Origin: an uncultured Planctomycetota bacterium
GTDB lineage: Bacteria; Planctomycetota; PLA2; JAEUHO01
Reading direction: 5' to 3'
DNA length: 64,000 nucleotides
Assembly: GCA_963752285.1 (NCBI GenBank)
Contig: CAVVXN010000005.1
Location: 1,760,001-1,824,000 of the forward strand
Shown: piece after piece, positions 25,806-43,673 of the stretch
Layout: each line of letters starts with the position of its first letter
How positions within the stretch are numbered: position 1 is the stretch's first letter
Program-made: the position numbers and the translations under genes
The notes under the pieces: generated by a model
What the model saw: only the letters and a program-made list of their open reading frames with translations
Told to the model about the DNA's origin: nothing
Databases searched by the model: none

Positions 25806-25821
25806 CGATCCCTCCCCGCGC

Positions 25822-26595: not shown

Positions 26596-27059
26596 GACCC
26601 CTCCACGATGTCACGCTCGAGCTGAACGTAGGGCCCGCCCACGAAGCGCTGCGAGCGAAAGAAGGAGAGCACGGGCACGTCGCCCCGCCGGACCATGGTC
26701 CGGACGCGGGTCATGCCGAGCTCCCGGAAGCGGCGTGTCGCCGCCTCGAGCAGCGCGGAGGCGTGACCCCGACGGCGCGACGCGTCGTCGATGCCCACGG
26801 CGAACACCCAGCCGCAGGGCTCGGATCCGAACTCGAACGCGCGCACCTCGGCGAAGAGGAACCCGGCCAGACCGCCGGCCCCGTCGTCGATGCCGAAACC
26901 GAAGGTCTTCGCACGCCCGGTCTCGCCGAGGAACGAGGAGAAGACGCCCTCCCAGTAGGCCGGCTTCGGCGCGCCGGTCTGGTCTGCGTCGATCCGGACG
27001 ACCTCCGCGAGGTCGGTCGCCTCGAGCGCGCGCGGGACGAGGGCGGTCTGGCCCGACAT
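26592..27059 (-). CDS. GNAT N-acetyltransferase (second BadL-like paralog)
   Basis: GFLFAEVRAFEFGSEPCGWVFAVG, RRRGHASALL, VRTMV, LSFFRSQ. Confidence 0.85.
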   Translation of the reverse strand: MSGQTALVPRALEATDLAEVVRIDADQTGAPKPAYWEGVFSSFLGETGRAKTFGFGIDDGAGGLAGFLFAEVRAFEFGSEPCGWVFAVGIDDASRRRGHASALLEAATRRFRELGMTRVRTMVRRGDVPVLSFFRSQRFVGGPYVQLERDIVEGS

Positions 27060-27062
27060 GGA

Positions 27063-28178: not shown

Positions 28179-28179
28179 C

Positions 28180-29250: not shown

Positions 29251-29278
29251 GTCCGCTCCCGCTCCCGCGTGACCCGGA

Positions 29279-29310
29279 AAAGAGGAAAACAGGAGTGTAT
29301 TTACCTCTTT
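29279..29310. promoter_or_regulatory. AT-rich inverted repeat upstream of had, candidate operator
   Basis: AAAGAGG-aaaacaggagtgtattta-CCTCTTT about 30 nt upstream of the first gene of the benzoyl-CoA operon. Confidence 0.6.
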
Positions 29311-29428
29311 CGGCCCGGCCGGCAAGGCCGTGCCGGGACGGAGCGGCGCGCCGGGGCGTGACAAGGGCCTTTCGGCCCAGAACAGGGACCGGGGAGGACG
29401 CGGGCGTCCGGGTCCGGTGCGGCGTCCC

Positions 29429-30742
29429 CTACGTCGGGGCGGGCGTGGCCCGGCGGACGATCTCCTGGATCTCGCTCGCGGCGAGCACCCGCTCCGACGA
29501 CTTCGCCGCGGCGAGCACCGCCTCGACCACCTCCGGAACGTCCGGGAGGCCGTGGACCTGGAGGTAGTGGTGCACGTTCGACGCCCCGGACATGTGTCCG
29601 ATCTCGATCTCCTGCCGGCGGCCGATCCAGGAGGCGGGCACGCCGGAGTAGACCCGGTCCGCGAGCCACGCGTCGCCCTTCCGCAGCGCCTTCACGACCG
29701 CCGCGGCGTGCACGCCGGTCGCGGTGCGGAACGCGTCCTTCCCAACGATCGGCGTGTTCACGGGAATCGGGACGCCCGTCGCCTCGGCGACGGTCTCGAC
29801 GTACTCCTGCAGGCACGAAAGGTCGTCGTCGCGCACGCCGAGCAGCCGCAGGTTGACCAGCAGCTGCTCCATCGGCGTGTTCCCGACTCGTTCGCCGACG
29901 CCCAGCGCGGTCCCGTGGACGCGCGTCGCGCCCGCCTCGAGGGCGGCGAGCGTGTTGGGGAGGCCGAGCCCGCGGTCGCGGTGGCCGTGCCAGTCGATGC
30001 CGACGCGGTCCTCGACGCCGAGTTCGTGCAAGAGCGAGGCGACCCACCCGACGAGGTTCATGACGCCCGCGGGCGTCGCGGCGCCCACGGTGTCGCAGAG
30101 GCAGAGCCGCTTCGCACCCGCGTCCACCGCCGCCGAGAGCAGCACCCGCAGGTGCTCCGGCGCGGAGCGGATCGTGTCCTCCGTCACGTACATGACGTCG
30201 AGGCCTTCCTTCACGGCGAAGAGCACGGCCTCCTTCGTCAGTCGCAGGATCCGGTCGAGGTCCCACTCCTCCGCGTACTGCCGGATGGGGCTGCTCCCGA
30301 TGAACAGACAGGCCTCGATCGGGACCCCCGTGCGGTTCGTCACGTCGGCCATGGGCTGGATGTCGGCGAGCAACGTACGGCCCGCGCAGTTGGCGCGGAT
30401 GCGGAGCCGATCGCGCGCGATCTCGCGGCACAAGGTCTCCGTGGCCTCGCGCTGGCGCGGTCCGGCGCCGGGCAGCCCGATGTTCGCCGTCTCGATGCCG
30501 AGGCGGTTCATCAGCTGGAGGATCCGGACCTTCACCTCGACCTCGGGGTCGCGGACCGACGGGCTCTGGAGGCCGTCCCGGAGCGTCTCGTCGTCGAGCA
30601 TCGCGACGGTGGGCGGATGGAACCGGTGCGGCCCCTCTGCCGCCCAGTCGTAGACGAGCGCGCCCTCCCCGAGGGGCGAAGGGGCGCCCTCGGAGCCCGC
30701 CGCAGGCTCCTTGCCGACGGAGGAGGGAGAGGGCCCGGCCAC
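29429..30742 (-). CDS. LeuA-family (DRE-TIM) acetyl-CoA condensing enzyme without the C-terminal regulatory domain
   Basis: DETLRDGLQ, LCDTVG, WHGHRDRGL, GVGERVGNT, TGVHAAA. Confidence 0.85.
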   Translation of the reverse strand: MAGPSPSSVGKEPAAGSEGAPSPLGEGALVYDWAAEGPHRFHPPTVAMLDDETLRDGLQSPSVRDPEVEVKVRILQLMNRLGIETANIGLPGAGPRQREATETLCREIARDRLRIRANCAGRTLLADIQPMADVTNRTGVPIEACLFIGSSPIRQYAEEWDLDRILRLTKEAVLFAVKEGLDVMYVTEDTIRSAPEHLRVLLSAAVDAGAKRLCLCDTVGAATPAGVMNLVGWVASLLHELGVEDRVGIDWHGHRDRGLGLPNTLAALEAGATRVHGTALGVGERVGNTPMEQLLVNLRLLGVRDDDLSCLQEYVETVAEATGVPIPVNTPIVGKDAFRTATGVHAAAVVKALRKGDAWLADRVYSGVPASWIGRRQEIEIGHMSGASNVHHYLQVHGLPDVPEVVEAVLAAAKSSERVLAASEIQEIVRRATPAPT

Positions 30743-30743
30743 C

Positions 30744-31448
30744 TCAGGAGACCTTCGCGTGGCCGAACTGCCGCGCCCGATCGAGCAGCGCCCGCGCCGC
30801 CTCCTCGTCGCCGGCTTCCCTCTCGATCGTCGCGAGGTGGTACAGACTGCTCGCCTCGCCGACGCCCTCGTCGATGCTCTGCTGGAACTCCCGCTTCGCG
30901 TCGGCGAGGCGCCCGAGGCGCTCGTGGATCACCCCGATGTGGTAACGCGCCATCAGGTACTCCGGCGTCAGCGTCGTGCACTGCTCGAAGTGACGGAGGG
31001 CCTCGTCGAGCTCCCCCGCGTGGAAGTGCGCGATCGCGAGCCGGTAGTGCGCCGCGTTGTAGTGCGGGTCGATCTCGAGGCAGTGCTCGAACGCGCGGAC
31101 CGCCGCGGGCATGTTCCCCCGGTGGTACCACGCCACGCCGAGGTCGTACGCGCAGAGCACGAACTGGGGCGCGCCGTCGAGCGCCGCCTGGTAGCGCTCG
31201 ATCGCGAGGTCGAGCGTGCCCTGGTGGAAGTACATCGTGCCCAGGAGGTGGTTGGCGAGGACGTTCTGGGGCTCCACGTCGAGCAGCCGCTCGAGCTCGC
31301 GCCGCGCGTCCTTGTGATTGCCGTCCCGCTCCGAGACCAGGGCGAGCAGCAGCCGTTGGTCCAGGTGCGCGTCGCGGAGGAACATCCCGCACTCCGCGCA
31401 GAACTTGTCGGACTCCTTGGACTCGCGACCACAGCGGGTGCACCTCAC
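30744..31448 (-). CDS. Zinc-ribbon plus TPR-repeat protein
   Basis: N-terminal CTRC...FCAECG followed by regular TPR repeats. Confidence 0.85.
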   Translation of the reverse strand: MRCTRCGRESKESDKFCAECGMFLRDAHLDQRLLLALVSERDGNHKDARRELERLLDVEPQNVLANHLLGTMYFHQGTLDLAIERYQAALDGAPQFVLCAYDLGVAWYHRGNMPAAVRAFEHCLEIDPHYNAAHYRLAIAHFHAGELDEALRHFEQCTTLTPEYLMARYHIGVIHERLGRLADAKREFQQSIDEGVGEASSLYHLATIEREAGDEEAARALLDRARQFGHAKVS

Positions 31449-31573
31449 TGGTCGTCTCCTCGATGAATCCGTCCCTTCGGGGCCCGCGCGCGACCCATTC
31501 GCACCGGGCGACCGAGCCGCCTCACTCTAGCGCGGGCGGGGCCGTCCGGACACCCCGGCGCCCGCGACGGGGG

Positions 31574-32296
31574 TCACGTCGGGCGGCGCTCGTCCCGCTG
31601 GAGCTCGTTCATCAGGTCGATCTGGATCTCCTGGATCTCCAGCAGCCGCTCCCACTGCCGCTGGACGAGGTAGTCGAGCTTCTCGCCGAGCTGCCGGATC
31701 TCGAGCTCCGCCTTCAGGTTCACGCGGTAGTCGTTCTGGGCGCGAAGGCGGTCGCGCGCCTCCTGGCGGTTCTGGCTCATCATGATGACGGGCGCCTGGA
31801 GCGCCGCGATGCACGAGAGGACCAGGTTCAGGAGGATGAAGGGGAACGGATCGAAGGGACGGGTGACCAGGAGGATGCCGTTCACCAGCATCCACACGAC
31901 CAGGAACCCGAGGAACACGAGGATGAACGGCCAGGACCCGCCGAGGTCCGCGACCCGGTCGGCGACCCGCTCCCCGAAGGAGAGTCCGCCCTGGAACTCC
32001 TTGTCCACGTCCTTCGCGAGCGTCTCGTACTGCGCCATGCTCTCGATCACCGACCGATCGATCGTGGAGATCTCACCGCGCTCCTCCGCCACGAGCGCCT
32101 CGATGTGGCGACGCCGGTAGCGGGCGAGGTCGTCGCGACAGACGTAGCCGGCCGCCGACCAGTCCGGATGCTCGCGCGCGATGTGCTCGGCGACGGAGGG
32201 CCGCACGAGGGCGGCGTACTCGAGGTCCCGCCTCGGGAGGGTGCGCCCGCAGACCTGACACCTGAGAGCGGGGCGGGGGCGATCGGCGTTCGGCAT
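31574..32296 (-). CDS. DUF1003-like membrane protein
   Basis: GERVADRVADLGGSW, FDPFPFILLNLVLS, QAPVIMMSQNRQ, DYRVNLKAELEI. Confidence 0.88.
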   Translation of the reverse strand: MPNADRPRPALRCQVCGRTLPRRDLEYAALVRPSVAEHIAREHPDWSAAGYVCRDDLARYRRRHIEALVAEERGEISTIDRSVIESMAQYETLAKDVDKEFQGGLSFGERVADRVADLGGSWPFILVFLGFLVVWMLVNGILLVTRPFDPFPFILLNLVLSCIAALQAPVIMMSQNRQEARDRLRAQNDYRVNLKAELEIRQLGEKLDYLVQRQWERLLEIQEIQIDLMNELQRDERRPT

Positions 32297-32341
32297 GGCG
32301 AGGCTCCGTCCGGGGCGCACCGAGCCGCGCCGGCGGGACCC

Positions 32342-33652
32342 TCAACCTACCCGCGCGCCGGTCGTCACCACCGCGGCCGAGACCTCGCCGTGGCGCCCGG
32401 AGGAGAGGACGAGCGCGGCCTTCCCGCGCGGCTCGAACGGAGCGAGCGCGACGCGCGCGCGTACGGAGAGCGGCTCCCGGCACCCGACGGTACCGGGGAC
32501 CGCGCCGCGACGGAGCGCAGCGAGCGCGACCACGACCTCGGCCAGCCCGTCGGCGAGCGCGAGGCGCCCGAGCGCGCCGCTCCACGACACGACGGGCGCC
32601 CCCGAGACGGCCGGCAGGGACGCGAGCGCCTCGAGCACGTCCCGGTCGGCGTCGGGAACGCCGAGGGACGGCGCCACGACGAACGCGAGGTCCTCCGGCC
32701 CGACACGTGCGGACGCCAGGGCCTCCGCGGCGGCGCGGCGCGCGGTTTCGCCCCGCGGCGCGGGAAGGTCGTCGCGGGGCGCGCCCGAGGCCTCGACCGC
32801 GGCGAGGAGGAGGTCCGCCCCCGTTCGGCCGTCCGGACGTCCGAGGCACAGGGCGGCCGCGGCCTCGCCTGGGGCGAGGCCCACGCCCCGCGCGTCGAAC
32901 GGACCGGGGAGCGGCGTGGGCCCCGCGCGCCGCAGACCGAGGAGCGCCTCGTCGTTTCGCGCGACGGCCGAGGCCGCCCGCCCCGCGCCGACGACGAGCG
33001 CGCGGTCCAGGTCGTCCCGGAGGAGCGCGCGCGCGGCGAGGTCCAGGAGCACGACGGAGGGCCCGGCGTAGCCCGAGACGCTCGTGTTCGGGCCGCGGAG
33101 GTCGAACAGGTTCGCGAGAAAGGAGAACGCGTTGTTCTTGAGGCTCTCGAGCAGGAAGAACGGCTTCACGTACCGCGCCGCGGCGCGGTTCAGCGCCTCC
33201 GCCTCGAGCGGCTTCGCGAAGCCCTCCGTCGCGAGGGCGAACGCGGGGCGCATCTCGACGCACGACCAGTCGAAGGCGTCCATCTGCGCGAGCCAGAGCC
33301 CTTGCCGGCCGCCGTCCGACGCGGCAGAGCTCCACCCCGCGCGGCCCCATGCCTCGAGCGCAGCCTCCACCGCGAGCGCGCCGGCGCCGTTCAGGAACTT
33401 GAGCTGCGCGTCGAGCTCGGGCGGGACGCCGCGACGGATGTAGGGCGGCTCGACCGGCGCGGCGAGCCCGCGCGCCGCGTCACCGGCGGCGTCCTCCGTC
33501 TCGCGCACGCCCGAGCGCCCCGCGAGCAGCGCGTCGAGGACCGGCGCCGTGCCGAAGCCGAGCGCGGTCACGAGCCCCGTGGCCACGACGGAGACCGCGT
33601 GGGGCCCGCGCTCGGAGCCCGCCGCACGGTCGGGAGAGGCCGCCGCCGTCAC
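32342..33652 (-). CDS. Ketosynthase-like protein lacking catalytic residues (chain-length-factor-like)
   Basis: KS fold motifs (ATGLVTALG, PFDARGVGLAPGEAAA) but GPNTSVSGYAGPS has no Cys and both His motifs are lost; GTG 33652. Confidence 0.8.
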   Translation of the reverse strand: MTAAASPDRAAGSERGPHAVSVVATGLVTALGFGTAPVLDALLAGRSGVRETEDAAGDAARGLAAPVEPPYIRRGVPPELDAQLKFLNGAGALAVEAALEAWGRAGWSSAASDGGRQGLWLAQMDAFDWSCVEMRPAFALATEGFAKPLEAEALNRAAARYVKPFFLLESLKNNAFSFLANLFDLRGPNTSVSGYAGPSVVLLDLAARALLRDDLDRALVVGAGRAASAVARNDEALLGLRRAGPTPLPGPFDARGVGLAPGEAAAALCLGRPDGRTGADLLLAAVEASGAPRDDLPAPRGETARRAAAEALASARVGPEDLAFVVAPSLGVPDADRDVLEALASLPAVSGAPVVSWSGALGRLALADGLAEVVVALAALRRGAVPGTVGCREPLSVRARVALAPFEPRGKAALVLSSGRHGEVSAAVVTTGARVG

Positions 33653-34128
33653 CGTCCCGATCCCTCTGGACGCTCCGAGGCGTCCGCCCCGCCGCCAAAG
33701 AGCGCGGAGAACGTCCGCCGCGCGGTGGCCTCGGCCTCGAGGTCCGCCAGGGGCACGACGAGTCCCTCGAACTCGACGACGGCGCCTCGCGTTCCCGCCA
33801 CCCGGCTCTCGCCGCGCCAGACGCGGCGGTCGCCCTCGGCGGCCGTCCGCTCGAGACGGAGCTCGATCCGGTCGCCGGGGCCCGCGAAGTCGTAGTAGCG
33901 CGCCGTCCGGACCCCGTCGAGCAGGAACCAGCGGCGGAACTCCGACGTCCGCGCCTCGTGCCATCCCGCGAGCTGCGCGAACGCCTCGAGGATCAGCATG
34001 CCCGGCACGATCGGGCGCTCCGGGAAGTGCCACTCGAAGTAGTCCTCGGAGAGCGCAGCGTTCTTGAAGCCGCTGATCCCGCCCTCCGGGTCGCACGAGG
34101 AGATGCGGTCGACGAGCAGGAACCTCAT
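33649..34128 (-). CDS. FabZ/FabA-type hydroxyacyl-ACP dehydratase
   Basis: MRFLLVDRI, WHFPERPIVPGMLILEA. Confidence 0.88.
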   Translation of the reverse strand: MRFLLVDRISSCDPEGGISGFKNAALSEDYFEWHFPERPIVPGMLILEAFAQLAGWHEARTSEFRRWFLLDGVRTARYYDFAGPGDRIELRLERTAAEGDRRVWRGESRVAGTRGAVVEFEGLVVPLADLEAEATARRTFSALFGGGADASERPEGSGR

Positions 34129-34565
34129 ACGTTCTCCTCCGGGCCCTCCGGCGGGTCCTCCGCGCCCGTGGCGAGCATGACGACGGACGCGATCGCGTGG
34201 GCGTCGGTGTGGCTGAGCGAGAGCGCGACGTCCACGACGCCCAGCCTGTCGGCGACCGCCCGCGGCTTCCCCCGGAGCGCCAGGCGCGGCGCGGTCCCCA
34301 CGCGGACGACCTCCAGGTCCTGGAGCGCGCGCACGACCCCGATCGCCGAGAGGCCGAGACCGAGGGCCTTGAGCCCGGCCTCCTTCGCCGCGAAGCGCGC
34401 GGCGAAGTGGATCGCCGGGTCGGCTTGGCTCCGACAGTACGCGCGCTCGGACTCCGTGAAGACGCGGTCCTCGAAGCCCGGGGTGCGGTCCAGGGCCCGA
34501 CGGAGACGCTCCACGTCGACCAGGTCGACGCCATGGCGCAGCGCGAGGCGGGGCGCGGCGCTCAT
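34125..34565 (-). CDS. acpS: Holo-ACP synthase (phosphopantetheinyl transferase)
   Basis: GVDLV, RVFTESE, FAARFAAKEA, LSLSH; ATG 34565. Confidence 0.9.
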   Translation of the reverse strand: MSAAPRLALRHGVDLVDVERLRRALDRTPGFEDRVFTESERAYCRSQADPAIHFAARFAAKEAGLKALGLGLSAIGVVRALQDLEVVRVGTAPRLALRGKPRAVADRLGVVDVALSLSHTDAHAIASVVMLATGAEDPPEGPEENV

Positions 34566-35317
34566 GCGATCGAAAGCCCCCCGTCCACCACGAACGTCTG
34601 CCCCGTCACGTAGTCGGCGTCCTTCGAGCAGAGGAAGAGGACGACGCCCGCCACGTCCTCGGGGCGACCGAAACGACCGAGCGGCACGTGCCGGAGGATC
34701 TCGGGGCCGGCGCGGCGCCGGATGATCGCCGTCATGTCGGTCTCCACGAACCCCGGGAGCACCGCGTTCACTCGAATCCCGTGCGCGGCGACCTCCAGCG
34801 CGGTGGCCCGGGTGAGCGCGAGCACGCCCGCCTTCGCCGCGGCGTAGCCGGCCTGGCCCCGGCCCCCGCGCAGGGCCTGGATCGAGGCGAGGTTCACGAT
34901 CGACCCGGTGCGCGCGGGGAGCATCGTGCGGAGCGCGCGGCGCGTGCACGCGAACGCGCCGCCGAGGTTCACGTCCAGGGCGCGGCGCCAGTCGACGTCG
35001 CGCGTCGCCGCGAGCGGCGCGTCGCGGTTCCAGCCGGCGTTGTTGACGAGTATGTCGAGGCGCCCGCGGACCTCGACGACCGCGTCTACGAGCGCCTCGG
35101 CCGCCGCGACGTCGCCGACGTCCGCCGCGCGGACGTCGGCCTGGCCGCCGTCCTGCTCGATCGACAGCGCGACGGCGCGCGCCGCGGGCTCGTCCGAACG
35201 GTACGCCACCGTCACGTGCGCGCCGGCTCGCGCGAGACGCTTCGCGATCGCGGCGCCGATCCCGCGCGAGGCGCCGGTGACGAGCGCGACCCGTCCCTCG
35301 AGCTCCGGGTCGTTCAC
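34562..35317 (-). CDS. 3-oxoacyl-ACP reductase (FabG-like)
   Basis: TGASRGIG, LVNNAG, YAAAK, VTGQTFVVDGG; GTG 35317. Confidence 0.88.
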   Translation of the reverse strand: MNDPELEGRVALVTGASRGIGAAIAKRLARAGAHVTVAYRSDEPAARAVALSIEQDGGQADVRAADVGDVAAAEALVDAVVEVRGRLDILVNNAGWNRDAPLAATRDVDWRRALDVNLGGAFACTRRALRTMLPARTGSIVNLASIQALRGGRGQAGYAAAKAGVLALTRATALEVAAHGIRVNAVLPGFVETDMTAIIRRRAGPEILRHVPLGRFGRPEDVAGVVLFLCSKDADYVTGQTFVVDGGLSIA

Positions 35318-36588
35318 GAGCCCTCCTCGAAGCGCCGGAGCACGACGCACGCGTTCTGGCCGCCGAACGCGAAGGAGTTCGTGAGCGCGATCCGCATCGG
35401 ACGAGGGCGCCCGCGGCCCGTCACGAAGTCGAGGTCGAGGCCGCGATCGGGCTCGGCGAGGTTCGCGGTGGGCGGCGCGACCCCCTCGGCCACCGCGCGG
35501 ACGGAGCAGGCGAACGCGACCCCCGCGGCGCCGGCGAGCAGGTGACCGAGCGCGCCCTTGCCCGAGGTGACCGCGGCCTCGCCCGCGTGCGCGCCGAGCA
35601 CGGAGCGGATCGCGAGGACCTCGGCCGGGTCGTTCCGCTTCGTGGCGGTGCCGTGCGCGTTCACCAGGTCCACCTCGTCGGGCGCGGCCCCGGCGTCCTC
35701 GAGCGCCGCGGCCATCGCCTCGGCGGCGCCGCGGCCATCGGGGCACGGCGCCGTGATCCGGTACGCATCCATCGAAGCACCGTACCCGGCCACCTCGGCC
35801 CAGATCCTCGCTCCGCGCCCCCGCGCATGCTCGAGCGACTCGAGGACGGCCACGCCGGCGCCCTCCCCCATCACGAGCCCCGCGCGGCGCCGGTCGAAGG
35901 GCCGGCACGCGGCGGCGGGGTCGGCCCCGCCCGGCGCGGCGGCGCCGAGGAGCACGAAGAACACGAGGCCGAGCGGGTTGTTCTGCGAGTCCGTACCCCC
36001 GGCGAGCACGAGGTCGGCCTCGCCGCGGCGGATCCAGCGGAGCGCGAGCCCGATCGCCTGGTTCGACGCCGAGCACGCGCTCGTCACCGCGTGGACCGGC
36101 CCCCCGAGGCCGAGTCGGGAGGCCAGTCGCGCGGCGGGTCGCTCGGCGCCTGCCGCGAGGATCGAGCCGCGGTGGACCCGAGGGAGGTCGTTGGCGAGGG
36201 CCGACGCGAGCAGCCGTCCATCGCCGTCGAGCCAGCGGTCCACGTCTTCGGGCCGGTGCGTGCCGGGGCCGACCCCGAGCGCGACGCCGCCGCGCGGACG
36301 GTCGCCCGTGGCAAGGCCCGCGTCCTCGAACGCGCGTACGCCGGCCGCGAGGGCGAAGAGCGTCCGCAGGTCGGCCGCGTCCGCGGCCTCGGGGAACGCG
36401 CGCTCGAGCGCGGCCCGCTCGTCGGCCGGGACCTCCCCGAGCGCGGTGGTCGGCGGGTGCGCGGCGCCGTAGCGTCGGGGCGCGTCGATCCCGACCTCGC
36501 CCCGCAGCAGCCGGCCCCACACGGCGTTCACGTCCGATCCCAGCGGCGTGACGAGGCCGAGCCCGGTGACGACGACGCGCGGTCTCAC
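35314..36588 (-). CDS. Beta-ketoacyl-ACP synthase (FabF-like, catalytic Cys-His-His intact)
   Basis: VVVTGLG, TSACSAS, VNAHGTAT, KGALGHL, NSFAFGGQN; GTG 36588. Confidence 0.9.
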   Translation of the reverse strand: MRPRVVVTGLGLVTPLGSDVNAVWGRLLRGEVGIDAPRRYGAAHPPTTALGEVPADERAALERAFPEAADAADLRTLFALAAGVRAFEDAGLATGDRPRGGVALGVGPGTHRPEDVDRWLDGDGRLLASALANDLPRVHRGSILAAGAERPAARLASRLGLGGPVHAVTSACSASNQAIGLALRWIRRGEADLVLAGGTDSQNNPLGLVFFVLLGAAAPGGADPAAACRPFDRRRAGLVMGEGAGVAVLESLEHARGRGARIWAEVAGYGASMDAYRITAPCPDGRGAAEAMAAALEDAGAAPDEVDLVNAHGTATKRNDPAEVLAIRSVLGAHAGEAAVTSGKGALGHLLAGAAGVAFACSVRAVAEGVAPPTANLAEPDRGLDLDFVTGRGRPRPMRIALTNSFAFGGQNACVVLRRFEEGS

Positions 36589-37022
36589 GGCAGTCCCTTC
36601 GCCGCGGCGAGACGGCACCGCAGCGCCTCGGGATCGGGCGCGGGGACGTGCGCGAAGAGAACGCGTCCGATCGAGGCGATCCGCTCATCGCCGACCAGGG
36701 CCCACGCGGCGCCGACGGAGCCCTTCGGGTTCGTGCCGCGAAGCTCGCCGAAGAGGTCGAGGCGGGTTCCGGGGGGCAGGTCCGGCGGGACCCGGACGTC
36801 CTCCAGGACGGAGAGCACGGCGAGGAATCGGTACTCGTGGCGGACGACGGCGCAGAGGCCCGTCAACTGAAGGAGAGACTCGATCACGAGGGTGGACGGG
36901 AACAGGGGTCGTCTCGCGAAGTGCCCGCGGAGCGCCTCGTCCGCGAGCGAAACGTTCTTCACGCCTTCGATGCGGCGGCCGGGCTCGATCTTCGTCACGG
37001 CGTCGACGAGGAGGAACCTCAC
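36585..37022 (-). CDS. FabZ-like dehydratase (divergent)
   Basis: RFLLVDAV, GVKNVS, GHFARRPLFPSTLVIES; GTG 37022. Confidence 0.8.
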   Translation of the reverse strand: MRFLLVDAVTKIEPGRRIEGVKNVSLADEALRGHFARRPLFPSTLVIESLLQLTGLCAVVRHEYRFLAVLSVLEDVRVPPDLPPGTRLDLFGELRGTNPKGSVGAAWALVGDERIASIGRVLFAHVPAPDPEALRCRLAAAKGLP

Positions 37023-38185
37023 CGCGCGCCCTCCAGCACGAGGGCCCCCGCCGCCCCCTCGCTCGAGAGCGCGAGCACGATCGCACGCCCGGGCCGGACA
37101 CGCGCGGCCGTCGGGTCGCCGGGCGCCGGTCCGGCGTCGAGGCGCGCGCCGGCCAGGAAGCGTGCGGCGAGGGCGGTCGCGAGCACGGGCGACGCCGGTC
37201 CGAGGTGCCCGGTGCGCGACGCGAACGCGAACGTCGTCGCGTCCTCCCCGAGCGTGGCGGCGACGGCCTGGCGCTCGTCCTCGGCCTCCCGGGCGCCGCC
37301 ACCCCCGTCGAGGAGGACCGTCCACGGCCCGACGGCGCGGGTCTGTGTGCCCGCGTCGTGGCACGCCGCGTCGATCGCACGCTCGATCGTGTGCCGGGAG
37401 GGGCCGGAGCGCCCGTCCGCGGGTCCGAACGTGGTCGCACCTCCGAGGAGCCGCAGCAGGGGCGCCTCGGCGTCCGCCTCGCGACGGAGGCGACACGCCG
37501 CGGCCCCCTCCCCCGGCGCGGCGCCGTCGCCGAGGGCGATCGAGATCCCGCGGAGACGACGGCGGGCGAGCGAGGCCGGCGAGACCCGCTCGGAGGCGGC
37601 CGCCACGAGCGCCGTGTCCGTCGCGCCCTCGAGGAGGGCACCCCGCGCCTCGAGGAGCGCGCGGACGCCCGCGTCGGCCTGCGACGCGAGTACCACGTTG
37701 TCGCCGCGTAGGTCGAGGTCGATGGCGAGCTGACCCACGGCGACGTTGCCGAGCATCGAGAGCGGCCACAGGGGGTGGATCGCGCGGTACCCGCCCCCGA
37801 AGAACCGGGCGAGGTCGAAGCGCGCCGCGCCGTCGCGCGAGGCGAGGATGGACGGTGCGAGGTCCTCGACGGGGGAGTCCACCATCCCGAGCGCAACGTA
37901 GAGGCCGAGCCGGTCCCGAGCGACCGCGCGTGGAGCGAGGGACGAGAGCACGCTCTCGAGCCACTGCCCGTGGGGCCCCAGGATCCGGAGGGTCGGGTCG
38001 TCCTCGGGCCCCGCGGCGTCGTCCGGCAGCTCGGCGGCGTCGGCGGCGCCGAACGCGGACGCGTCGAAGCCTCGGACCGGCGAGACGGCCGTCTCGCCCG
38101 ACGCGAGCGCCGCGCACGTCGCGTCGAGGTCCGCGCCCAGCGCGGTCCGCGCGGCGACGGCCTCGATCGCGATGGCGACGCTCAT
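37019..38185 (-). CDS. Ketosynthase-like protein lacking the catalytic Cys (chain-length-factor-like)
   Basis: HPLWPLSMLGNV, GDNVVLASQADAG where active KS has SACAAG; no HGT motif; ATG 38185. Confidence 0.8.
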   Translation of the reverse strand: MSVAIAIEAVAARTALGADLDATCAALASGETAVSPVRGFDASAFGAADAAELPDDAAGPEDDPTLRILGPHGQWLESVLSSLAPRAVARDRLGLYVALGMVDSPVEDLAPSILASRDGAARFDLARFFGGGYRAIHPLWPLSMLGNVAVGQLAIDLDLRGDNVVLASQADAGVRALLEARGALLEGATDTALVAAASERVSPASLARRRLRGISIALGDGAAPGEGAAACRLRREADAEAPLLRLLGGATTFGPADGRSGPSRHTIERAIDAACHDAGTQTRAVGPWTVLLDGGGGAREAEDERQAVAATLGEDATTFAFASRTGHLGPASPVLATALAARFLAGARLDAGPAPGDPTAARVRPGRAIVLALSSEGAAGALVLEGAR

Positions 38186-39498
38186 CCGACGGCCCCGGCC
38201 GCGCCCAGGCAGAGGCAGCCGTTCTGACCGCCGAACCCGAACGAGCTGGACAGCGCCGTCTGGTGCTCGAGGGCGCGGGCCTCGTTCGGGACCACGTCGA
38301 GGTCGCACCTCGGGTCCGGCGCCTCCTGGTTGATCGTGGGGAGCAGAACGCCCTCGCGCATGCCGATCAGGGTCGCGATGGCCTCGATCGCGCCGGCGGC
38401 TCCGATGGTGTGCCCGATCATCGACTTGTTCGACGAGACGGGGACGTTCGGCGCACGGTCCTCGAAGAGACGCCGGAGGGCGGTCGTCTCTACCGGGTCG
38501 TTCGTCGGCGTGGAGGTGCCGTGCGCATTCACGTACTGGACGTCGTCCGGCGACATCCCCGCGTCCGAGAGCGCGCGGCGCATCGCCGCGAGCGCGCCGT
38601 CGCCGCGCGGGTGGACGTCGGTGATGCGGTACGCGTCGGAGGAGTCGCCGTAGCCGAGGATCTCGCCGAGGACGGGTCGTCCTCGGGCACGCGCGCCCTC
38701 GAGCGTCTCGAGGACGAGCGCGCCCGCACCCTCCGCGATCACGAACCCGCCGCGGCGGCGGTCGAAGGGGCGCGACGCCTTCTCGGGCGTCGGGTAGCGG
38801 CGGACGAGAGCTCCGAGGAGCGCGAATCCGAGGAAGTAGCTGTACGTGAGGAGCGGCTCGACGCCGCCCGTCACGACGAGGTCGGCCCGACCGTCCCGGA
38901 GGAGCCGAGTCCCCTCGCCCACGGCCTGCGTGCCCGCGGCACACGCCGAGACGATCGGGATCGTGGGACCGCCGGCCCCCACGAGGCGCGCGACGAGGGC
39001 GGGAACGGTGTCGGGCAGGCGGATGCTGGCCTGGCTCGGCTCGTACGCGCGGTCGCGGGCGAGCCCCGCGAGGTCCACGGCGCCGTCCTCGGACGTGTGA
39101 CGGAGGACGACGAGCGCCTGCTCGGCGGTCGGGGTGTAGCCGTGGCCGCCCAGGAAGACGGCGACGCGTCCCGGGTCGAGCCCCTCGGGCACCCGGCCCG
39201 ACGGCAGCGCCTCTCGGAGCGCGGTCCGGTAGAGACGGAACGCCGTCCCCCCGTCGGCGTCGAGCGGATGCGGCTCGGCGAGCTCGGACGTGTCGACCTC
39301 GCCCGCGATGTCACACGGCAGGCCGGTGGGGTCGAAGCGCGTGATGCGCCGGATCCCCGACCGGCCCGCGCGCATCGCCCCAAACGTCGTCTCGGCGTCG
39401 GCGCCCAGGCACGTGACCGCGCCCATGCCGGTCACGACGACGCGCAGGGCGGGGTCGCGCTCCCGCGCGGGCCGTCGGCGTCCGCTCGCGCTACTCAC
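38182..39498 (-). CDS. Beta-ketoacyl-ACP synthase (FabF-like, catalytic Cys-His-His intact)
   Basis: VVVTGMG, VSACAAG, VNAHGTST, KSMIGH, SSFGFGGQN. Confidence 0.92.
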   Translation of the reverse strand: MSSASGRRRPARERDPALRVVVTGMGAVTCLGADAETTFGAMRAGRSGIRRITRFDPTGLPCDIAGEVDTSELAEPHPLDADGGTAFRLYRTALREALPSGRVPEGLDPGRVAVFLGGHGYTPTAEQALVVLRHTSEDGAVDLAGLARDRAYEPSQASIRLPDTVPALVARLVGAGGPTIPIVSACAAGTQAVGEGTRLLRDGRADLVVTGGVEPLLTYSYFLGFALLGALVRRYPTPEKASRPFDRRRGGFVIAEGAGALVLETLEGARARGRPVLGEILGYGDSSDAYRITDVHPRGDGALAAMRRALSDAGMSPDDVQYVNAHGTSTPTNDPVETTALRRLFEDRAPNVPVSSNKSMIGHTIGAAGAIEAIATLIGMREGVLLPTINQEAPDPRCDLDVVPNEARALEHQTALSSSFGFGGQNGCLCLGAAGAVG

Positions 39499-40060
39499 CG
39501 GCGAAGAAGTGATGCTCGTCCTCGACCTGGTGGATCCAGCGGCGCGTCAGCTCATCGCCCTCGGGGTAGGCGGCGGGCTTTCCGCACGCGCCGCACTGGA
39601 CCTTCAACCCGTCGGGCGAGGTCCACGCCGCCTCCTGGCAGTAGGTGCAGGCCGTCGGGAGCTCGGCCGTGATCCCCTGGACGCTCTGGACGAGGACCAT
39701 GGGGGTCACGAGCGTCGGCACCTCGTCCGCGTACATACCCGCCTCGAGGCCCGGGCGGTCGCCGAGGTACAGACGGAGCAGCCGGGCCGCGCCCTCCGTG
39801 ATCTGGTTGTTTCGATCGACGGCCTTGCCTTCGCCCAGCTCTTCCTCGACGTGGTCGAGGAGGAGCTGCGTGGCGAGGCGGATCCCGAACGCGCTCTCCA
39901 GCCGGAAGTTGATGTCGAGGAAGTCGATGGAGGTCGCGCCGAGGTCGTTCATGATCGACCGGTCGAGGCCGATCCCGCCCTCTTCGCGGCGCAACGTGAG
40001 GGCGAGGGCCTTCCTGACCTCGGTCTCGATCCGCTCCCGCGTGATGAAGGGGTTCGCCAT
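39491..40060 (-). CDS. Enlarged acyl carrier protein with C-terminal CxxC...CxxC extension
   Basis: DLGATSIDFLDINFRLE phosphopantetheine site, long insertion, then CTYC-x13-CGAC; ATG 40060, 189 aa. Confidence 0.85.
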   Translation of the reverse strand: MANPFITRERIETEVRKALALTLRREEGGIGLDRSIMNDLGATSIDFLDINFRLESAFGIRLATQLLLDHVEEELGEGKAVDRNNQITEGAARLLRLYLGDRPGLEAGMYADEVPTLVTPMVLVQSVQGITAELPTACTYCQEAAWTSPDGLKVQCGACGKPAAYPEGDELTRRWIHQVEDEHHFFAGE

Positions 40061-40123
40061 GCCCGCTTGGTGCCTCCCGACGCCGGTCGCGCCCCCCCCG
40101 ATGGCTCTCCGACCGGGGGAGTA

Positions 40124-40160
40124 GGGGGTGTACACCCCCCCCGGACCCTGGCAAGGTCCG
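40124..40160 (-). promoter_or_regulatory. Candidate internal promoter/operator upstream of the ACP gene
   Basis: Minus strand TTGCCA-N16-TACACC; perfect 16-bp palindrome GGGGGTGTACACCCCC over the -10 and CGGACC/GGTCCG flanking the -35. Confidence 0.45.
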
Positions 40161-40179
40161 TGGACGCCGCGGGCCGTGC

Positions 40180-40974
40180 CTACGCTCGCGGCGCGTCGGG
40201 GGCGCGCAGGAGCCGGTTCGAGAGCCCTCGATCCACGACGATCGTCTGTCCCGTGATCCCGGCGGCGTCCGGGTGGGTGAGGAGGGCCACGGCGCCTGCG
40301 ATCTCTTCCGGTCGGACGAAGAGCTCGTCCGGGAGCTCGTCGAGCCCGCGCCACAGACGCCGGAGCGTCTTGAACGCGTCCGTCTTCGCGAGGCCCGCGC
40401 AGACCGCGTTCGCCCGCACCCGCTTGTCGCGCAGCTCCTCGCCCCACTGCCGGATCATCGCCTCCATCGCCGCCTTCAGGGGGCCCAGGGGGTACTGCGG
40501 GTTCATGAAGCGGGAGCCGAGGCTCGAGACGAAGACGACGTCGCCCCCGCGGCGTTCGAGCAGGGGAAGCGCCCGTTGAAGACAGAAGACGGGGCCGTAG
40601 AGGTTCGTCTCCACGAGCTGAACCAGGTCGCGCTCGAAGAGCCGCCAGGTCTCCTTGAAGGGCGCGCGGGCCGCGTTCAGGACCAGCACGTCGAGGCGGC
40701 CGAACGTTGCATCGATCTCGCCGACCACCCGCCCCACGGCCTCCTTGTCGGCGACGTCGGCGTAGAGGCACGTCGCGCGGCGGCCCAGGCCTTCGATCTC
40801 CCGGACGAGGGCCTCCGCCGACGCTGCGCCGGGCCCGCCCGGACGGCGACCGTGGACGACGACGTCGGCGCCCGCGCGGGCGAGCCGCGCAGCGATCGCG
40901 TGGCCGACGCCGCGCGTGCTGCCTGTGACCCAGGCGACCTTGCCCGAGAGAAAGGCCTCCGGCGCCTCGTTCAC
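40180..40974 (-). CDS. SDR-type enoyl-ACP reductase (FabL-like)
   Basis: TGSTRGVG, VSSLGSRF..PQY..GPLKAAMEA, ITGQTIVVD; first gene of the FAS-like cluster. Confidence 0.75.
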   Translation of the reverse strand: MNEAPEAFLSGKVAWVTGSTRGVGHAIAARLARAGADVVVHGRRPGGPGAASAEALVREIEGLGRRATCLYADVADKEAVGRVVGEIDATFGRLDVLVLNAARAPFKETWRLFERDLVQLVETNLYGPVFCLQRALPLLERRGGDVVFVSSLGSRFMNPQYPLGPLKAAMEAMIRQWGEELRDKRVRANAVCAGLAKTDAFKTLRRLWRGLDELPDELFVRPEEIAGAVALLTHPDAAGITGQTIVVDRGLSNRLLRAPDAPRA

Positions 40975-41120
40975 GGGGCGACGCTCAGGGGGCAGGGCCG
41001 TTCGGGCGGCGAAGCGACGTTCGCGGGCATGGTGCGGGTTGTAGCACGGCCGACGCCCGGCCCCCGTGACGGCGGCGCGCCCCTTCGGCCCGGGGAGGAG
41101 GAGCCGTAGGATCCGTCGTC

Positions 41121-42095
41121 ATGCGCCGCCGCTCCCTCCTCCCCGAGAGCGTCGTCGGCGGCCTCGTGCTCCTGGGCCTCCGCTCGCTCACGAGAATCCT
41201 CCGCGCCCTTCCGGCGCGCTGGGTCCTCGCGGGGGCGGACGTGGTCGGCCTGCTCCTGTACGCGGTGGACCGCCGGGGCCGGCGCGTCGCGCGCGACAAC
41301 CTGCGCGTGGTCTTCGGCGACCAGCTGTCGCACGCGGAGCGGCTCCGGATCCAGCGCGAGGCCCAGCAGGGTGTGGTGCGCGCGCTCGCCGTGACCCTCC
41401 ACGCCTCGCCCCTCACGGCCGAGCGCGTGCGGCGCTGGGTCGTGGTCCCGCCCGAGACGGAGGGGGTGCTGCGGGGGGCGGCGCGTCACGCGAAGGGCGC
41501 GGTGGTGGTCTCGGCGCACGTCGGGAACTGGGAGATGCTGCTCGGCCTGGCTTCGGTGTTTCGCGACATCGCCACGACGACGTTCCTCTTCGAACCCAAC
41601 CCCACGCCCGGCCTCGACCGGTTCCTCGACTGGCTGCGCGGGACCTCGGGCGGGCGCTCGGCGTCTCGGAAGGGCGGCGCGCGGTCGCTGATGACGCACG
41701 TGCGGAACGGGGGCATCGCGGGCCTCCTCGTGGACCGGAACGTCCGGCGGAGCCAAGGTGGCATCTGGGCCCCCTTCTTCGGGCTGCAGGCGTGCACGTC
41801 TCCGCTGCCCGCTCTCCTCGCGCTGAGGAACCGCACGCAGATCGCGCCGCTCTTCCTCCTGCCCCTCACGGACGGACGCTACCTCGTGGAGCTCGGGCCC
41901 GAGCTCACGCAGGGCGTGGCGACGGGCGATCCCCGGCAAGACATTCTCGAGATCACGGCGCGCCTGAACCGGGTGCTCGAGGCCGTGATCCGGACGTACC
42001 CCGAGGCGTGGAACTGGACCCTCAAGCGCTTCAAGAGCCGCCCGCGGCGCGAGCGCGGGCCCTACCCGTCCTACAGCCTCTGGGATCCCGAGTGA
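41121..42095 (+). CDS. LpxL/HtrB-family lipid acyltransferase
   Basis: ARDNL, SAHVGNWE, LLVDRN, PFFG, IRTYPEAWNWTLKRFK. Confidence 0.85.
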   Translation: MRRRSLLPESVVGGLVLLGLRSLTRILRALPARWVLAGADVVGLLLYAVDRRGRRVARDNLRVVFGDQLSHAERLRIQREAQQGVVRALAVTLHASPLTAERVRRWVVVPPETEGVLRGAARHAKGAVVVSAHVGNWEMLLGLASVFRDIATTTFLFEPNPTPGLDRFLDWLRGTSGGRSASRKGGARSLMTHVRNGGIAGLLVDRNVRRSQGGIWAPFFGLQACTSPLPALLALRNRTQIAPLFLLPLTDGRYLVELGPELTQGVATGDPRQDILEITARLNRVLEAVIRTYPEAWNWTLKRFKSRPRRERGPYPSYSLWDPE

Positions 42096-42140
42096 CCGGA
42101 GACGTGGCTCGGCGCCGGAGATCCGGCGCGGTCACCGCCG

Positions 42141-43673
42141 TCAGCTCCCCTTCTTCCCCTCCTCGAGCGCGCGCTTCACCTCGCCCTCGAGCCAGACGTT
42201 GTCGGGGTCGAGCTCGAGCGCCAGCCCGAGGAGGCGCACGGCCTCGCCGTGGTCCTTCGAGAGCAAGGCACGGCCCTTGCCGGCGTAGAACTCGCTCTCG
42301 AGGGGACCCAGCTCGATGGCCTTGTCGTAGTTGGAGACGGCCTCGTCGGTCTTTCCGTCGCGCTCGAGGAGCTCGCCGTAGGCGTAGTAGGTCATGGGGT
42401 TCGTCGTCCCCCTCTGGATCGCCTCCGAGTAGAGCCTCTTCGCCCGAATGGGCCGGTCCGTGTACTCGGCGGCCTGCGCGGCCTTTTCGAACCCCGCGGC
42501 CGTGACGAACTTCAAGGTGTCCTTCACGTAGGCGTGCCACTCGTTCTCGAAGGCCGTGAACTCCTCCTCCTTCTTGAGCCCCAGAGCCCCGCGGAAGTGG
42601 GCATAGATCTCGTCGCCGTGCACCGTAGCCATGCCGTTCGCGCCGTCGTGCTCCTGCTGGACGCCCTTGCCGGTCGTCAGGTCGCGGACGAAGGCCTCGA
42701 ACCGCTTCCGGTAGCGCTTGTCGCTCATCAAGAAGTGCACGAGCGACCATCCCCACGTGTAGTGCTCGTACATCTCGTCGGTCTTGAGGAGCTTCTCCAG
42801 GCTCATCTCGTTGCCGGCGTCGATGTCGGTCTTGACCTCCGCCAGGCGTCCCTCCAGCACGAGTCCCGTCTCGAACTTCCTCGTCTGGGTGTCGTAGTGA
42901 CTGGCCCCGTAGTACTCGGCGAGCGACTCGCCGGGGAAGTGGGGCATCGAGAAGCTCGTGTTGAGGAGACTCTGCAGGTAGTGGTTCGTCTCGTGGAACA
43001 TCACGTGCTCGGTCAGGTCCGGCTCGAGACGGTCGTAGTAGAAGTCGAGCTCGAGAGGGGCGACGTATCGGAAGTAGCCGAGGACTCCGCCATGGGCGTT
43101 CGCGATCTGGGCAAACTTGTCGCGGTCGGAGTAGAAGCAGACGGGGAGCTTCCCGGGGTCCTTCGGCTGCCGCACCTTCCACGTCTTCGAGAAGTCGTCG
43201 AAGTACGCTTCCATCATGTCGCGATAGTGCTCGAAGACGAACGGTGCGACCGTGTACTGGAACGTGAAGTGCCGCGACTCGTCCTTGTAGGCGAAGCGCC
43301 AGAGCTGGTGCTTCCGAAGCTCTTCCACGGCCTCGCGCCGCGCGGCGATGCGCTTCTGGATCTCCTCGTCGCGCTTGTCCTTCTTGACCCAACGGCCCTG
43401 GTAGCGGACCAGACCCTTCTCGGCCATCAGGCGTTCTTCGTCCGTCTTGGGCGGAGCGTTCGCGTCGGCCTCGAGGATCGCGTCCTCGATCTGGCCGGCG
43501 GGCACGAGCACTTCCCCGTGCTCGAAGACCACCTTCACCCCCGCCTCGACGCGCTCCATCTTCGGCCGCTCGAGGATTCGCCCGTCCTGCAGGATCAACA
43601 CGTCGGCCCGTGCCGGGGCGGCCAGAACCAGGAGCAGCCAGAGGGCCCCAGCTCCGACGGTGACTCGTCGCAT
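42141..43673 (-). CDS. Secreted zinc-peptidase-like protein (DUF1570-like) with C-terminal TPR
   Basis: Signal peptide, SHD-like ADVLILQDG, FHETNH (HExxH) plus ESLAEYY, C-terminal TPRs. Confidence 0.7.
   Translation of the reverse strand: MRRVTVGAGALWLLLVLAAPARADVLILQDGRILERPKMERVEAGVKVVFEHGEVLVPAGQIEDAILEADANAPPKTDEERLMAEKGLVRYQGRWVKKDKRDEEIQKRIAARREAVEELRKHQLWRFAYKDESRHFTFQYTVAPFVFEHYRDMMEAYFDDFSKTWKVRQPKDPGKLPVCFYSDRDKFAQIANAHGGVLGYFRYVAPLELDFYYDRLEPDLTEHVMFHETNHYLQSLLNTSFSMPHFPGESLAEYYGASHYDTQTRKFETGLVLEGRLAEVKTDIDAGNEMSLEKLLKTDEMYEHYTWGWSLVHFLMSDKRYRKRFEAFVRDLTTGKGVQQEHDGANGMATVHGDEIYAHFRGALGLKKEEEFTAFENEWHAYVKDTLKFVTAAGFEKAAQAAEYTDRPIRAKRLYSEAIQRGTTNPMTYYAYGELLERDGKTDEAVSNYDKAIELGPLESEFYAGKGRALLSKDHGEAVRLLGLALELDPDNVWLEGEVKRALEEGKKGS

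Follow-up and report, generated by a model that had tools for sequence, protein, structure and literature searches.

The window analysed here is a stretch of 64,000 nucleotides from an uncultured Planctomycetota bacterium (GTDB lineage PLA2; JAEUHO01; assembly GCA_963752285.1, contig CAVVXN010000005.1, positions 1,760,001 to 1,824,000), and its minus strand carries a cassette of ten genes (A to J, Table 1), in which gene I encodes an enlarged acyl carrier protein (ACP) of 189 residues. Gene I codes for a genuine, conserved and widespread protein, which is an undescribed variant of the ACP. All the sequence and fold tests that were run identify the product as an ACP, but its architecture, as modelled, is a variant one: the four-helix ACP bundle is present in the predicted structure, is interrupted by an insert of about 50 residues and is extended by a four-cysteine (Cys4) ribbon and a final helix. 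An earlier note on this DNA, made from the letters alone, had described a double-size ACP of 189 residues with an insert after helix II, four cysteines and a final helix, and the open reading frame (ORF), the homologues and the AlphaFold2 model all agree with this description. Taken as a whole, the observations are best explained by a specialised type II ACP having an integral second lobe, from which the chain would be handed to an LpxL-type acyltransferase; this explanation is preferred here with moderate confidence.

The reading frame of gene I runs from the ATG at 40060 to the TAG at 39493-39491 (189 codons, window numbering, minus strand), and its 3' end overlaps the GTG start of gene H by 8 nucleotides. 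The Pfam family PP-binding (PF00550) matches residues 14-70 over profile positions 2-57 of 67, with 28.7 bits against a cut-off of 20.8, and the ACP models of NCBIfam match only under their cut-offs (for example TIGR00517, with 21.3 against 70.45). Residues 39-55, DLGATSIDFLDINFRLE, include Ser44, the predicted 4'-phosphopantetheine site, which is preceded by a threonine in the protein of the window. This serine is invariant in 35 close relatives and in 46 full-length representatives, and it is found in 100% of the 58 long forms that are non-redundant at 70% identity. The cysteines are arranged as CTYC (residues 138-141) and CGAC (residues 156-159), with 14 residues between the pairs (CxxC-x14-CxxC) and not the 13 that had been counted in the earlier note. 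When the region 31000-42300 is scanned for promoters and terminators, no sites of either kind are found. Among the sequencing runs listed for the region 38200-41000 there is no RNA run, and seven DNA runs have small shares of it.

Structure prediction, which the earlier note had proposed as a check, was done with AlphaFold2, using the alignment of the 35 close relatives as input, and it gives one compact body for the whole chain, with a pLDDT of 94.2 and a pTM of 0.88. Helices are predicted at residues 8-23, 44-58, 67-75, 89-99, 111-117, 120-131 and 168-183, and short strands at residues 146-147, 155-156 and 162. The solved ACP chains of about 80 residues align over residues 4-136 of the model, as seen when comparing it with the PDB representatives by VIA-align, and because these short chains align across this whole range, the insert is placed between helices II and III, and the ribbon and the final helix after helix IV. 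In this comparison 30 PDB chains have a Z score of at least 8, and the rows listed at this level are carrier proteins or carrier domains; no alignment extends beyond residues 1-137 of the model. A Foldseek search against the PDB has no matches at E ≤ 0.001, the best hits being ordinary ACPs over about 60 residues with a TMq of about 0.3. In the protein atlas, residues 132-189 find no usable match, and the whole protein finds only unnamed or 'carrier domain' clusters of 187-216 residues. Pfam has no family over the insert or the ribbon, and the lobe on its own gives chance-level rows only.

The insert and the C-terminal module probably form an integral lobe. The main argument for one compact body is the high pTM of the model, and the covarying residue pairs give weak support to it. 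In the covariation analysis (effective sequence number 154), 14 pairs score above the largest maximum of column-shuffled controls, which ignore relatedness, whereas most of the top 60 pairs are within the shuffled range. Both C141-C159 and C138-C159 are among the 14 pairs, and four of the 14 connect residues of the C-terminal module with helix I, loop I, the insert or helix IV. The residues G168, D169 and W175 of the final helix are present in all 79 full-length family members that were examined.

A word-indexed protein search finds 165 homologues at E ≤ 1e-3, of which 120 are listed. Nearly all of the 120 have 186-191 residues and are 54-80% identical to the protein of the window; they come mostly from Planctomycetota, and the database labels of the close homologues are 'acyl carrier protein' or 'phosphopantetheine-binding protein'. 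The four cysteines are found in all 120 listed relatives, in 119 of them by the pattern and in a fragment of 153 residues (P0117) by its tail. The residues S44, C138, C141, C156 and C159 are invariant in the 35 relatives of 54-80% identity, and in this close family the ribbon residues other than the cysteines are also well conserved (W146, D150, G151, V154, A163, Y165 and P166). An exhaustive search of representatives at 50% identity extends the family to 315 proteins at E ≤ 1e-3, with 57 at E ≤ 1e-10. In the 46 full-length representatives (22-59% identity), S44 and C138 never vary, and the other three cysteines (C141, C156 and C159) are each conserved to at least 90%. In the 58 non-redundant long forms, conservation is 98% for C156, 93% for C138, C141 and C159, 95% for G76, 93% for T88 and 90% for G168. 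The conservation of the cysteines, on which the earlier note had made its proposal depend, is borne out, in 35 of 35 close relatives and in 93-98% of the 58 long forms. When searched as a regular expression, the Cys4 pattern is present in 56 of the 72 representatives of at least 170 residues. Homologues of Nocardia and Rokubacteria, being 31-43% identical, also carry the four cysteines, with a spacing of x17 in Nocardia.

The genomic loci of the family were surveyed with the close-family alignment, keeping the best 80 of 185 matches, and this gave 79 related loci, which together with the window make 80 family members (from Planctomycetota, Nitrospinota, Tectomicrobia, Rokubacteria, other metagenome-assembled genomes (MAGs) and 16 Nocardia genomes). 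All four cysteines are present in 46 of the 80 members (28 from Planctomycetota, 2 from Rokubacteria and 16 from Nocardia), and one further member is cut by a contig end. The remaining 33, from Nitrospinota, Tectomicrobia and other MAGs, keep one cysteine only, having S, a gap, C, and T or S at the four positions. These 33 members nevertheless keep the length (185-192 residues), W146, G168, D169 and W175, as well as the operon. A tree that was built without the ribbon columns groups the Cys-less rows in one clade (100/98, ultrafast bootstrap/SH-aLRT), inside a clade of 34 rows (99/92) to which 27 Cys4 rows, including that of the window, also belong. The Cys-less clade is thereby nested among the Cys4 forms, as it is in quick trees. 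A tree in which all Cys4 rows are forced into one clade is rejected (p-AU 0.0023), for a group that was chosen after the tree had been inspected. With the ribbon-less forms, described below, taken as the root, it follows that the cysteines were lost rather than gained. The AlphaFold2 model of the Cys-less clade, which is calculated from a shallow alignment of 21 sequences (pLDDT 80.2, pTM 0.76), has the same helices and a hairpin at 145-148/152-155. In the Cys-less clade (L028-L063, Nitrospinota-type), the attachment motif at about residues 41-45 of the ACP is DDLGVLSLDFLD, where a hydrophobic leucine precedes the attachment serine, as compared with an aspartate in ordinary ACPs and a threonine in the protein of the window.

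In the organism of the window, the four cysteines most probably bind a structural zinc ion, as judged from the sequence pattern. A Cys4 metal knuckle is a sensible reading because the cysteines are strongly conserved and because strands are predicted at the right places, and the protein has the two CxxC knuckles, about 10-20 residues apart on hairpins, that define zinc ribbons (here 14 residues, with predicted strands). No curated zinc-ribbon profile of Pfam matches the C-terminal part above its cut-off (Zn_ribbon_4, E 0.49, with 10.8 bits against 30.3; YyzF, E 0.11). Short zinc ribbons often escape such profiles, and the lack of a match therefore lowers the likelihood of membership of a named family but not that of the ribbon reading. 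The zinc- or iron-binding module of the earlier note is supported as a putative Cys4 knuckle; a rubredoxin-like character is seen neither in the profiles nor in the spacing. Since the lobe and the operon persist in a derived clade (33 loci) that has only one of the four cysteines, the metal would be a dispensable structural staple and not a redox centre, and the redox chemistry on the tethered chain that had been suggested in the earlier note is not supported. On the sequences compared here, the conserved functional unit is the lobe rather than the metal, and the lobe outlives the metal site.

A ribbon-less long ACP of about 130-140 residues shares the core, carries a homologous insert (with G..LT..G and ..T motifs) and ends after helix IV. 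The sister family has this form in each of its 11 genomes. Among 151 evenly sampled Planctomycetota genomes, 33 have a match at E ≤ 1e-20, of which 3 are full-length and 30 are ribbon-less; the full-length form is confined to the window's own family in this sample (3 of 3 genomes), and the ribbon-less form is found in 30 of the 148 genomes outside it. When these forms are taken as the outgroup, the C-terminal module has been added to an already enlarged carrier. The operons of the ribbon-less ACP, of the type dehydratase-ACP-dehydratase(-KS-KS), where KS is ketosynthase, are simpler than the ten-gene cassette, and one dehydratase of such an operon has a weak ApeI-like match. Examples are the FabA-like/ACP/FabA-like(/KS/KS) operons with a ribbon-less ACP at L081 6945-10798 and L080 9489-10919 (genomes G028 and G036). 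The ribbon-less long ACP appears to be unstudied, without a described family.

In the literature that was covered (subscription journals and bioRxiv supplements fall outside it), no publication describes this cassette or an ACP that has a Cys4 or zinc module, in agreement with the statement of the earlier note that no ACP with a metal-binding CxxC pair is known. The canonical AcpP (PF00550; PDB entries 1x3o and 6lvt) shares with the protein of the window the sequence of helices I and II, the serine of the xSxD motif at the start of helix II and the four-helix core. The close-family profile matches the canonical ACP 1x3o with an E value of 8.5e-7, and canonical ACPs have structural Z scores of 9-10 over about 75-85 residues. 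The canonical protein has about 78 residues, as compared with 189 here, and the ACP of the window adds the insert of about 50 residues, the Cys4 hairpin and the extra helix, and has a threonine instead of an aspartate before the serine.

The rhizobial cluster for lipid A with very-long-chain fatty acids (VLCFA) is given as acpXL-fabZXL-fabF1XL-fabF2XL-(adhA2XL)-lpxXL in PMC5613085. As described there, it has a dedicated large ACP beside FabZ-like, paired FabF-like and LpxL-family genes; all of these have functional counterparts in the window, and the two gene sets are alike in their logic. The lipid A of the rhizobial system carries a very long (omega-1)-hydroxy acyl chain. The AcpXL-type protein RPA2022 of Rhodopseudomonas palustris (2kw2/3lmo) is not consistently the best match of the family: 2kw2 is the top match of the close-family profile (E 3.2e-7, aligned to position 82), by a slim margin with respect to the 8.5e-7 of 1x3o, and it also has the longest structural alignment (96 residues, Z 9.0), but it ranks third, behind canonical ACPs, when the ribbon-less profile is used. 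AcpXL differs in having about 100 residues and no zinc site in the PDB titles. The cassette of the window differs from the rhizobial cluster in having ten genes in another order, with two KS pairs, a FabG, an AcpS and a short-chain dehydrogenase/reductase (SDR), and in that the acyltransferase is missing from many loci.

The earlier note had also mentioned an insertion-bearing ACP from anammox candidate clusters. A specialised anammox ACP (amxACP) does exist, but it is a chain of 89 residues (7AUF), its special feature is a long 3-10 helix and not an insert with a ribbon, and the word 'insertion' does not occur in PMC10139942. Its structure superimposes well on the core of the model (7auf, Z 10.3, rmsd 1.4 Å over 79 residues, model range 7-135), being tied with 8xqx (Z 10.5). 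According to PMC10139942 and a preprint on the anammox enzymes, the amxACP pathway has a FabZ variant and an amxFabF2/amxFabFmut heterodimer of a KS and a dead KS, which acts like a pair of KS and chain-length factor (CLF). The window resembles this arrangement in having a pathway-specific ACP beside FabZ-type and KS/dead-KS genes. Anammox Cluster I has radical SAM and PDH-like genes, neither of which is present in the operon of the window. There is no anammox genome among the 79 loci, which derive from the best 80 of 185 matches.

The order of the cassette, J-I-H-G-F-E-D-C-B-A, recurs in those of the 79 loci that are long enough to show it. The Rokubacteria loci, whose ACPs bear the ribbon, lack genes G, E and C, and three Planctomycetota loci lack gene C. 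A glutamine at the position of the active-site cysteine is the hallmark of the CLFs of type II polyketide synthases (PKS), and known type II PKS and highly reducing KS-CLF systems include the actinorhodin KS/CLF, Iga11/Iga12 of ishigamide and ApeO/ApeC of the aryl polyenes. In the cassette, the KSs of genes H and E are intact, and there are also two KS-fold proteins without the cysteine, in which this residue is a glutamine (gene G) or a tyrosine (gene A) and the first histidine is also absent. These catalytic residues fit two KS pairs, one consisting of an active KS and a Gln-type CLF and the other of an active KS and a dead KS, which would form heterodimers. The cassette is in this respect like the KS-CLF systems, but these have ACPs of ordinary size (AntF aligns as a chain of 78 residues, and ApeE/ApeF as chains of 82-86 residues). 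No cyclase, aromatase or adenylation genes are detected in the operon of the window by Pfam and NCBIfam. The Iga and Act KS/CLF systems are also named in the anammox preprint.

Table 1. Features of the enlarged ACP and of its gene neighbourhood in the window (window numbering).
Feature	Position	Strand	Basis or remark
Gene I, enlarged acyl carrier protein, 189 aa	39491..40060	-	ORF/translation, Pfam PP-binding, homologues, AlphaFold2; stop codon included
Ser44 codon, predicted 4'-phosphopantetheine site, motif LGATSIDFLD	39929..39931	-	Invariance in alignments; start of predicted helix II
Helical insert, residues ~59-110, between helices II and III, conserved G76 and T88	39731..39886	-	Secondary structure, ACP alignments, homology with ribbon-less relatives
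Cys4 ribbon, residues ~136-166, C138/C141/C156/C159 and W146	39563..39655	-	Sequence, conservation, predicted strands
C-terminal helix, residues 168-183, opens with G168-D169, holds W175	39512..39559	-	AlphaFold2, conservation
Gene J, SDR, best NCBIfam match FabL enoyl-ACP reductase	40180..40974	-	168.6 bits against a cut-off of 328; directly upstream of the ACP gene in non-Nocardia loci
Gene H, FabF-like ketosynthase KS1, Cys-His-His intact	38182..39498	-	Start overlaps the ACP stop
Gene G, chain-length-factor-like KS, Gln replaces active-site Cys	37019..38185	-	ATGA overlap with KS1
Gene F, FabZ/FabA-like dehydratase (start approximate)	36585..37037	-	Frame analysis; Pfam FabA 1.7e-11; NCBIfam FabZ 63.8 bits, under cut-off
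Gene E, second FabF-like ketosynthase KS3, Cys-His-His intact	35314..36618	-	Pfam/NCBIfam, residue alignment
Gene D, FabG-type 3-oxoacyl-ACP reductase (start approximate)	34562..35314	-	TIGR01830 270.1 against 297.75; subfamily NF009466 239 against 222
Gene C, AcpS-type 4'-phosphopantetheinyl transferase	34125..34568	-	Pfam ACPS 1e-14; TIGR00516 63.7 against 59.8 bits
Gene B, second FabZ/FabA-like dehydratase	33649..34128	-	Pfam/NCBIfam
Gene A, KS-fold, Cys replaced by Tyr, both His lost (start approximate); probable KS3 partner	32342..33652	-	Frame analysis, Pfam, residue alignment
Gene K, LpxL-family (lipid A late) acyltransferase, divergent from the operon	41121..42095	+	Pfam Lip_A_acyltrans 5.7e-38; HX4E intact

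The two residues of the HX4E motif of gene K (H133 and E138) are invariant in 23 homologues. In all 26 Nitrospinota-type loci that extend beyond gene A, the next gene is gene K; of the 11 Planctomycetota loci that are covered on both sides, 5 have gene K close to the cassette. The ACYLTRANSFERASE link of the cassette is partial, with gene K being beside only part of the loci of the family. A separate canonical acpP-fabF pair is located elsewhere in the genome, which also codes for LpxC, LpxB and a second protein of the LpxL family. Only two PF01648 matches are found in this genome (89% complete), at G000:C5:1794245-1794532, which is the operon AcpS (about 34245-34532 of the window), and at G000:C5:1011822-1012124. 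The second match is inside a frame of 2920 residues, beside a frame of 2731 residues with KS domains, as in a megasynthase of the polyunsaturated fatty acid (PUFA) or PKS type.

The cassette is also present in Nocardia (L066 1-20540, from Nocardia suismassiliense, and 15 other loci, L064-L079), where the ACP has the Cys4 form CxxC-x17-CxxC and is about 31% identical to that of the window. The core of the Nocardia cassette consists of a KS, a KS-like protein, a dehydratase, a second KS, an AcpS, a ketoreductase, a dehydratase, another KS-like protein and an SDR. Additional genes code for a radical SAM enzyme, an amine-oxidase/PDH-like flavoprotein, two FAD monooxygenase-like proteins, a methyltransferase, a class III aminotransferase and a protein of the acyltransferase-domain or malonyl-transferase type. 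Nocardia is not expected to make lipid A. The Nocardia gene set recalls the anammox 'Cluster I', a proposed gene cluster of ladderane lipids that comprises ACP, FabZ, KS/dead KS, PDH-like and B12 radical SAM genes, the radical SAM enzyme and the amine-oxidase/PDH-like flavoprotein being the shared additional genes.

It is very probable, on the gene content of the operon and the conservation of Ser44, that the protein is a pantetheinylated carrier for the two KS pairs, the reductase or reductases and the dehydratases of its own operon. Ser44 would carry the 4'-phosphopantetheine arm, and on this arm the co-operonic enzymes (the two KS pairs, the FabG-type reductase, the two FabZ-like dehydratases and the FabL-like SDR) would build the chain. 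The lobe would consist of the insert together with the C-terminal hairpin and helix, packing back onto the core, with the hairpin being pinned by the four cysteines and likely by one zinc ion. By enlarging or capping the acyl cavity, the lobe may make room for a long or bulky chain, and it may limit the choice of partners as well, a proposal for which the chances are considered to be even. The finished, probably long, acyl chain would then pass to the product of the neighbouring gene K, to be placed on lipid A or a related lipid; for the organism of the window this hand-over is plausible, but its chances are put at slightly below even. A more far-reaching version is tentative and rather unlikely to hold in all its parts. 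In this version, the insert and the zinc-stapled lobe would form a closed chamber for a very long or bulky chain, the cassette together with the LpxL-type transferase would be an independent, non-rhizobial route to a very-long-chain acyl group on lipid A in Planctomycetota and Nitrospinota, and in Nocardia the same chambered carrier would serve a remodelled chain, with a ladderane-like gene set.

Several observations weigh against parts of this explanation. No gene K is found within 10 kb in 6 of the 11 fully covered Planctomycetota loci, in 2 of 2 Rokubacteria loci and in 16 of 16 Nocardia loci, and since it is missing from so many loci, the link with lipid A is not universal to the family. 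The presence of an aminotransferase, a radical SAM enzyme, flavin oxidoreductases and a methyltransferase in the Nocardia cassette also points to a different end product there. The product of gene J is merely FabL-like, scoring under the cut-off of that family, and the chain may or may not be fully reduced. The operon AcpS is not clearly 'dedicated', because it is perhaps the only stand-alone AcpS of the cell (in a genome that is 89% complete), and it may also be the housekeeping AcpS. The covariation signal is weak, as only 14 pairs exceed the shuffles, which ignore relatedness. Finally, 16 of the 72 representatives of at least 170 residues lack the Cys4 pattern by the regular expression, P0238 being the only one of these that was inspected.

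It is also conceivable, and compatible with the preferred explanation, that the ribbon lobe is mainly a docking or selectivity surface for one of the cluster enzymes (the KS/CLF, the dehydratase pair, the SDR of gene J or the acyltransferase), by which the pathway is insulated from the housekeeping fatty acid synthase (FAS). Precedents for such insulation are given in the accessible text of the anammox preprint (PMC10139942), where amxFabZ dehydrates the amxACP-bound but not the canonical-ACP-bound substrate, and where the KS/CLF-like heterodimer prefers amxACP. The separate acpP-fabF pair in the genome of the window and the well conserved non-cysteine residues of the ribbon in the close family are in agreement with this possibility. 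However, no gene of the cluster co-occurs solely with the ribbon, as seen from the loss of genes G, E and C in Rokubacteria and of gene C in three Planctomycetota loci; the ribbon-less relatives are likewise found beside dehydratase and KS pairs; and the ribbon residues outside the cysteines and the GD...W residues vary in distant members. The high pTM and the covarying pairs that connect the lobe to the core favour an intramolecular role, and docking as the main function of the ribbon lobe is considered unlikely.

A rubredoxin-like iron site, used for electron transfer or for redox chemistry on the tethered acyl chain, is very improbable. Knuckles of the CxxCG type are common to rubredoxins and zinc ribbons, so that the sequence by itself cannot name the metal, but the 14 residues between the cysteine pairs are typical of short zinc ribbons, as compared with about 29 in rubredoxins. 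Moreover, the one-cysteine state of the 33 members that keep the lobe and the operon is a derived one, no rubredoxin family is found by Pfam (E ≤ 0.01 for the whole protein and E ≤ 10 for the C-terminal part), no partner oxidoreductase requiring a one-electron carrier is evident in the operon of the window, and the JGI label of one homologue pairs the ACP with ribosomal protein S27AE, which is a zinc ribbon. The possibility that the extension is an artefact, caused by a frameshift, a mis-assembly or a read-through fusion of an ACP gene with a small zinc-ribbon gene, can practically be discounted. Genomes of high G+C content yield many spurious long ORFs, and the window, with 72% G+C, has many of these; no direct support for an artefact was found. 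Against it, the frame analysis of the G+C content at third codon positions (GC3) supports one continuous frame for gene I, the same architecture of 185-191 residues is present on independent contigs of many assemblies and phyla, and the full-length form is found in 24 of 24 related genomes of the window's own family. The insert, which makes up about half of the extra length, cannot stem from a fusion with a downstream gene, because helices III and IV (residues 111-131) complete the fold after it. A sequencing error, which the earlier note had named as a way in which its proposal could fail, is refuted, as far as sequence data can show, by the 165 homologues and the nearly uniform length of the 120 listed.

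ACPs are among the best-studied small proteins, and their four-helix design of about 80 residues is treated as nearly universal; a widespread family in which this design is split by an insert and capped by a lobe, and in which the carrier serves a conserved ten-gene synthase of its own, alters that picture. In Planctomycetota, Nitrospinota-type bacteria, Rokubacteria and Nocardia, such a carrier points to an undescribed lipid product. The ordinary ACP, the ribbon-less long ACP, the Cys4 form and the Cys-less ribbon form make up a natural series, which could show the effect of each addition. If it is true that the product goes onto lipid A, this has a bearing on the outer-membrane biology of Planctomycetota, and if the far-reaching version given above holds, the enlarged ACP is the mark of an entire unexplored class of lipid pathways based on KS/CLF. 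Engineering could profit from such a carrier in itself, for its being orthogonal to the housekeeping FAS.

Downstream of the cassette, the minus strand has a run of genes (21138-31526) that codes for an activase ATPase of the BcrAD/BadFG type, two D-components of 2-hydroxyacyl-CoA dehydratase and two enoyl-CoA hydratases, and also for a GNAT protein, a Zn-dependent alcohol dehydrogenase, an HMGL-like protein, a TPR protein with a weak N-terminal zinc-ribbon match and, beside the TPR gene, a DUF1003 protein. These genes were considered as members of the cassette and rejected, as none of them is near the ACP gene in any of the 79 loci, and for the same reason the run appears to be an acyl-CoA pathway of its own. 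Such a set of radical dehydratase genes, being oxygen-sensitive, is unusual in what is, judging from its relatives, apparently a soil planctomycete. At 1072-2880 of the window (plus strand), a frame of about 600 residues combines TPR repeats with two copies of the C-terminal domain of the RNA polymerase alpha subunit (PF03118, E 6e-45, in two stretches), which is an odd architecture for a domain that contacts DNA and activators.

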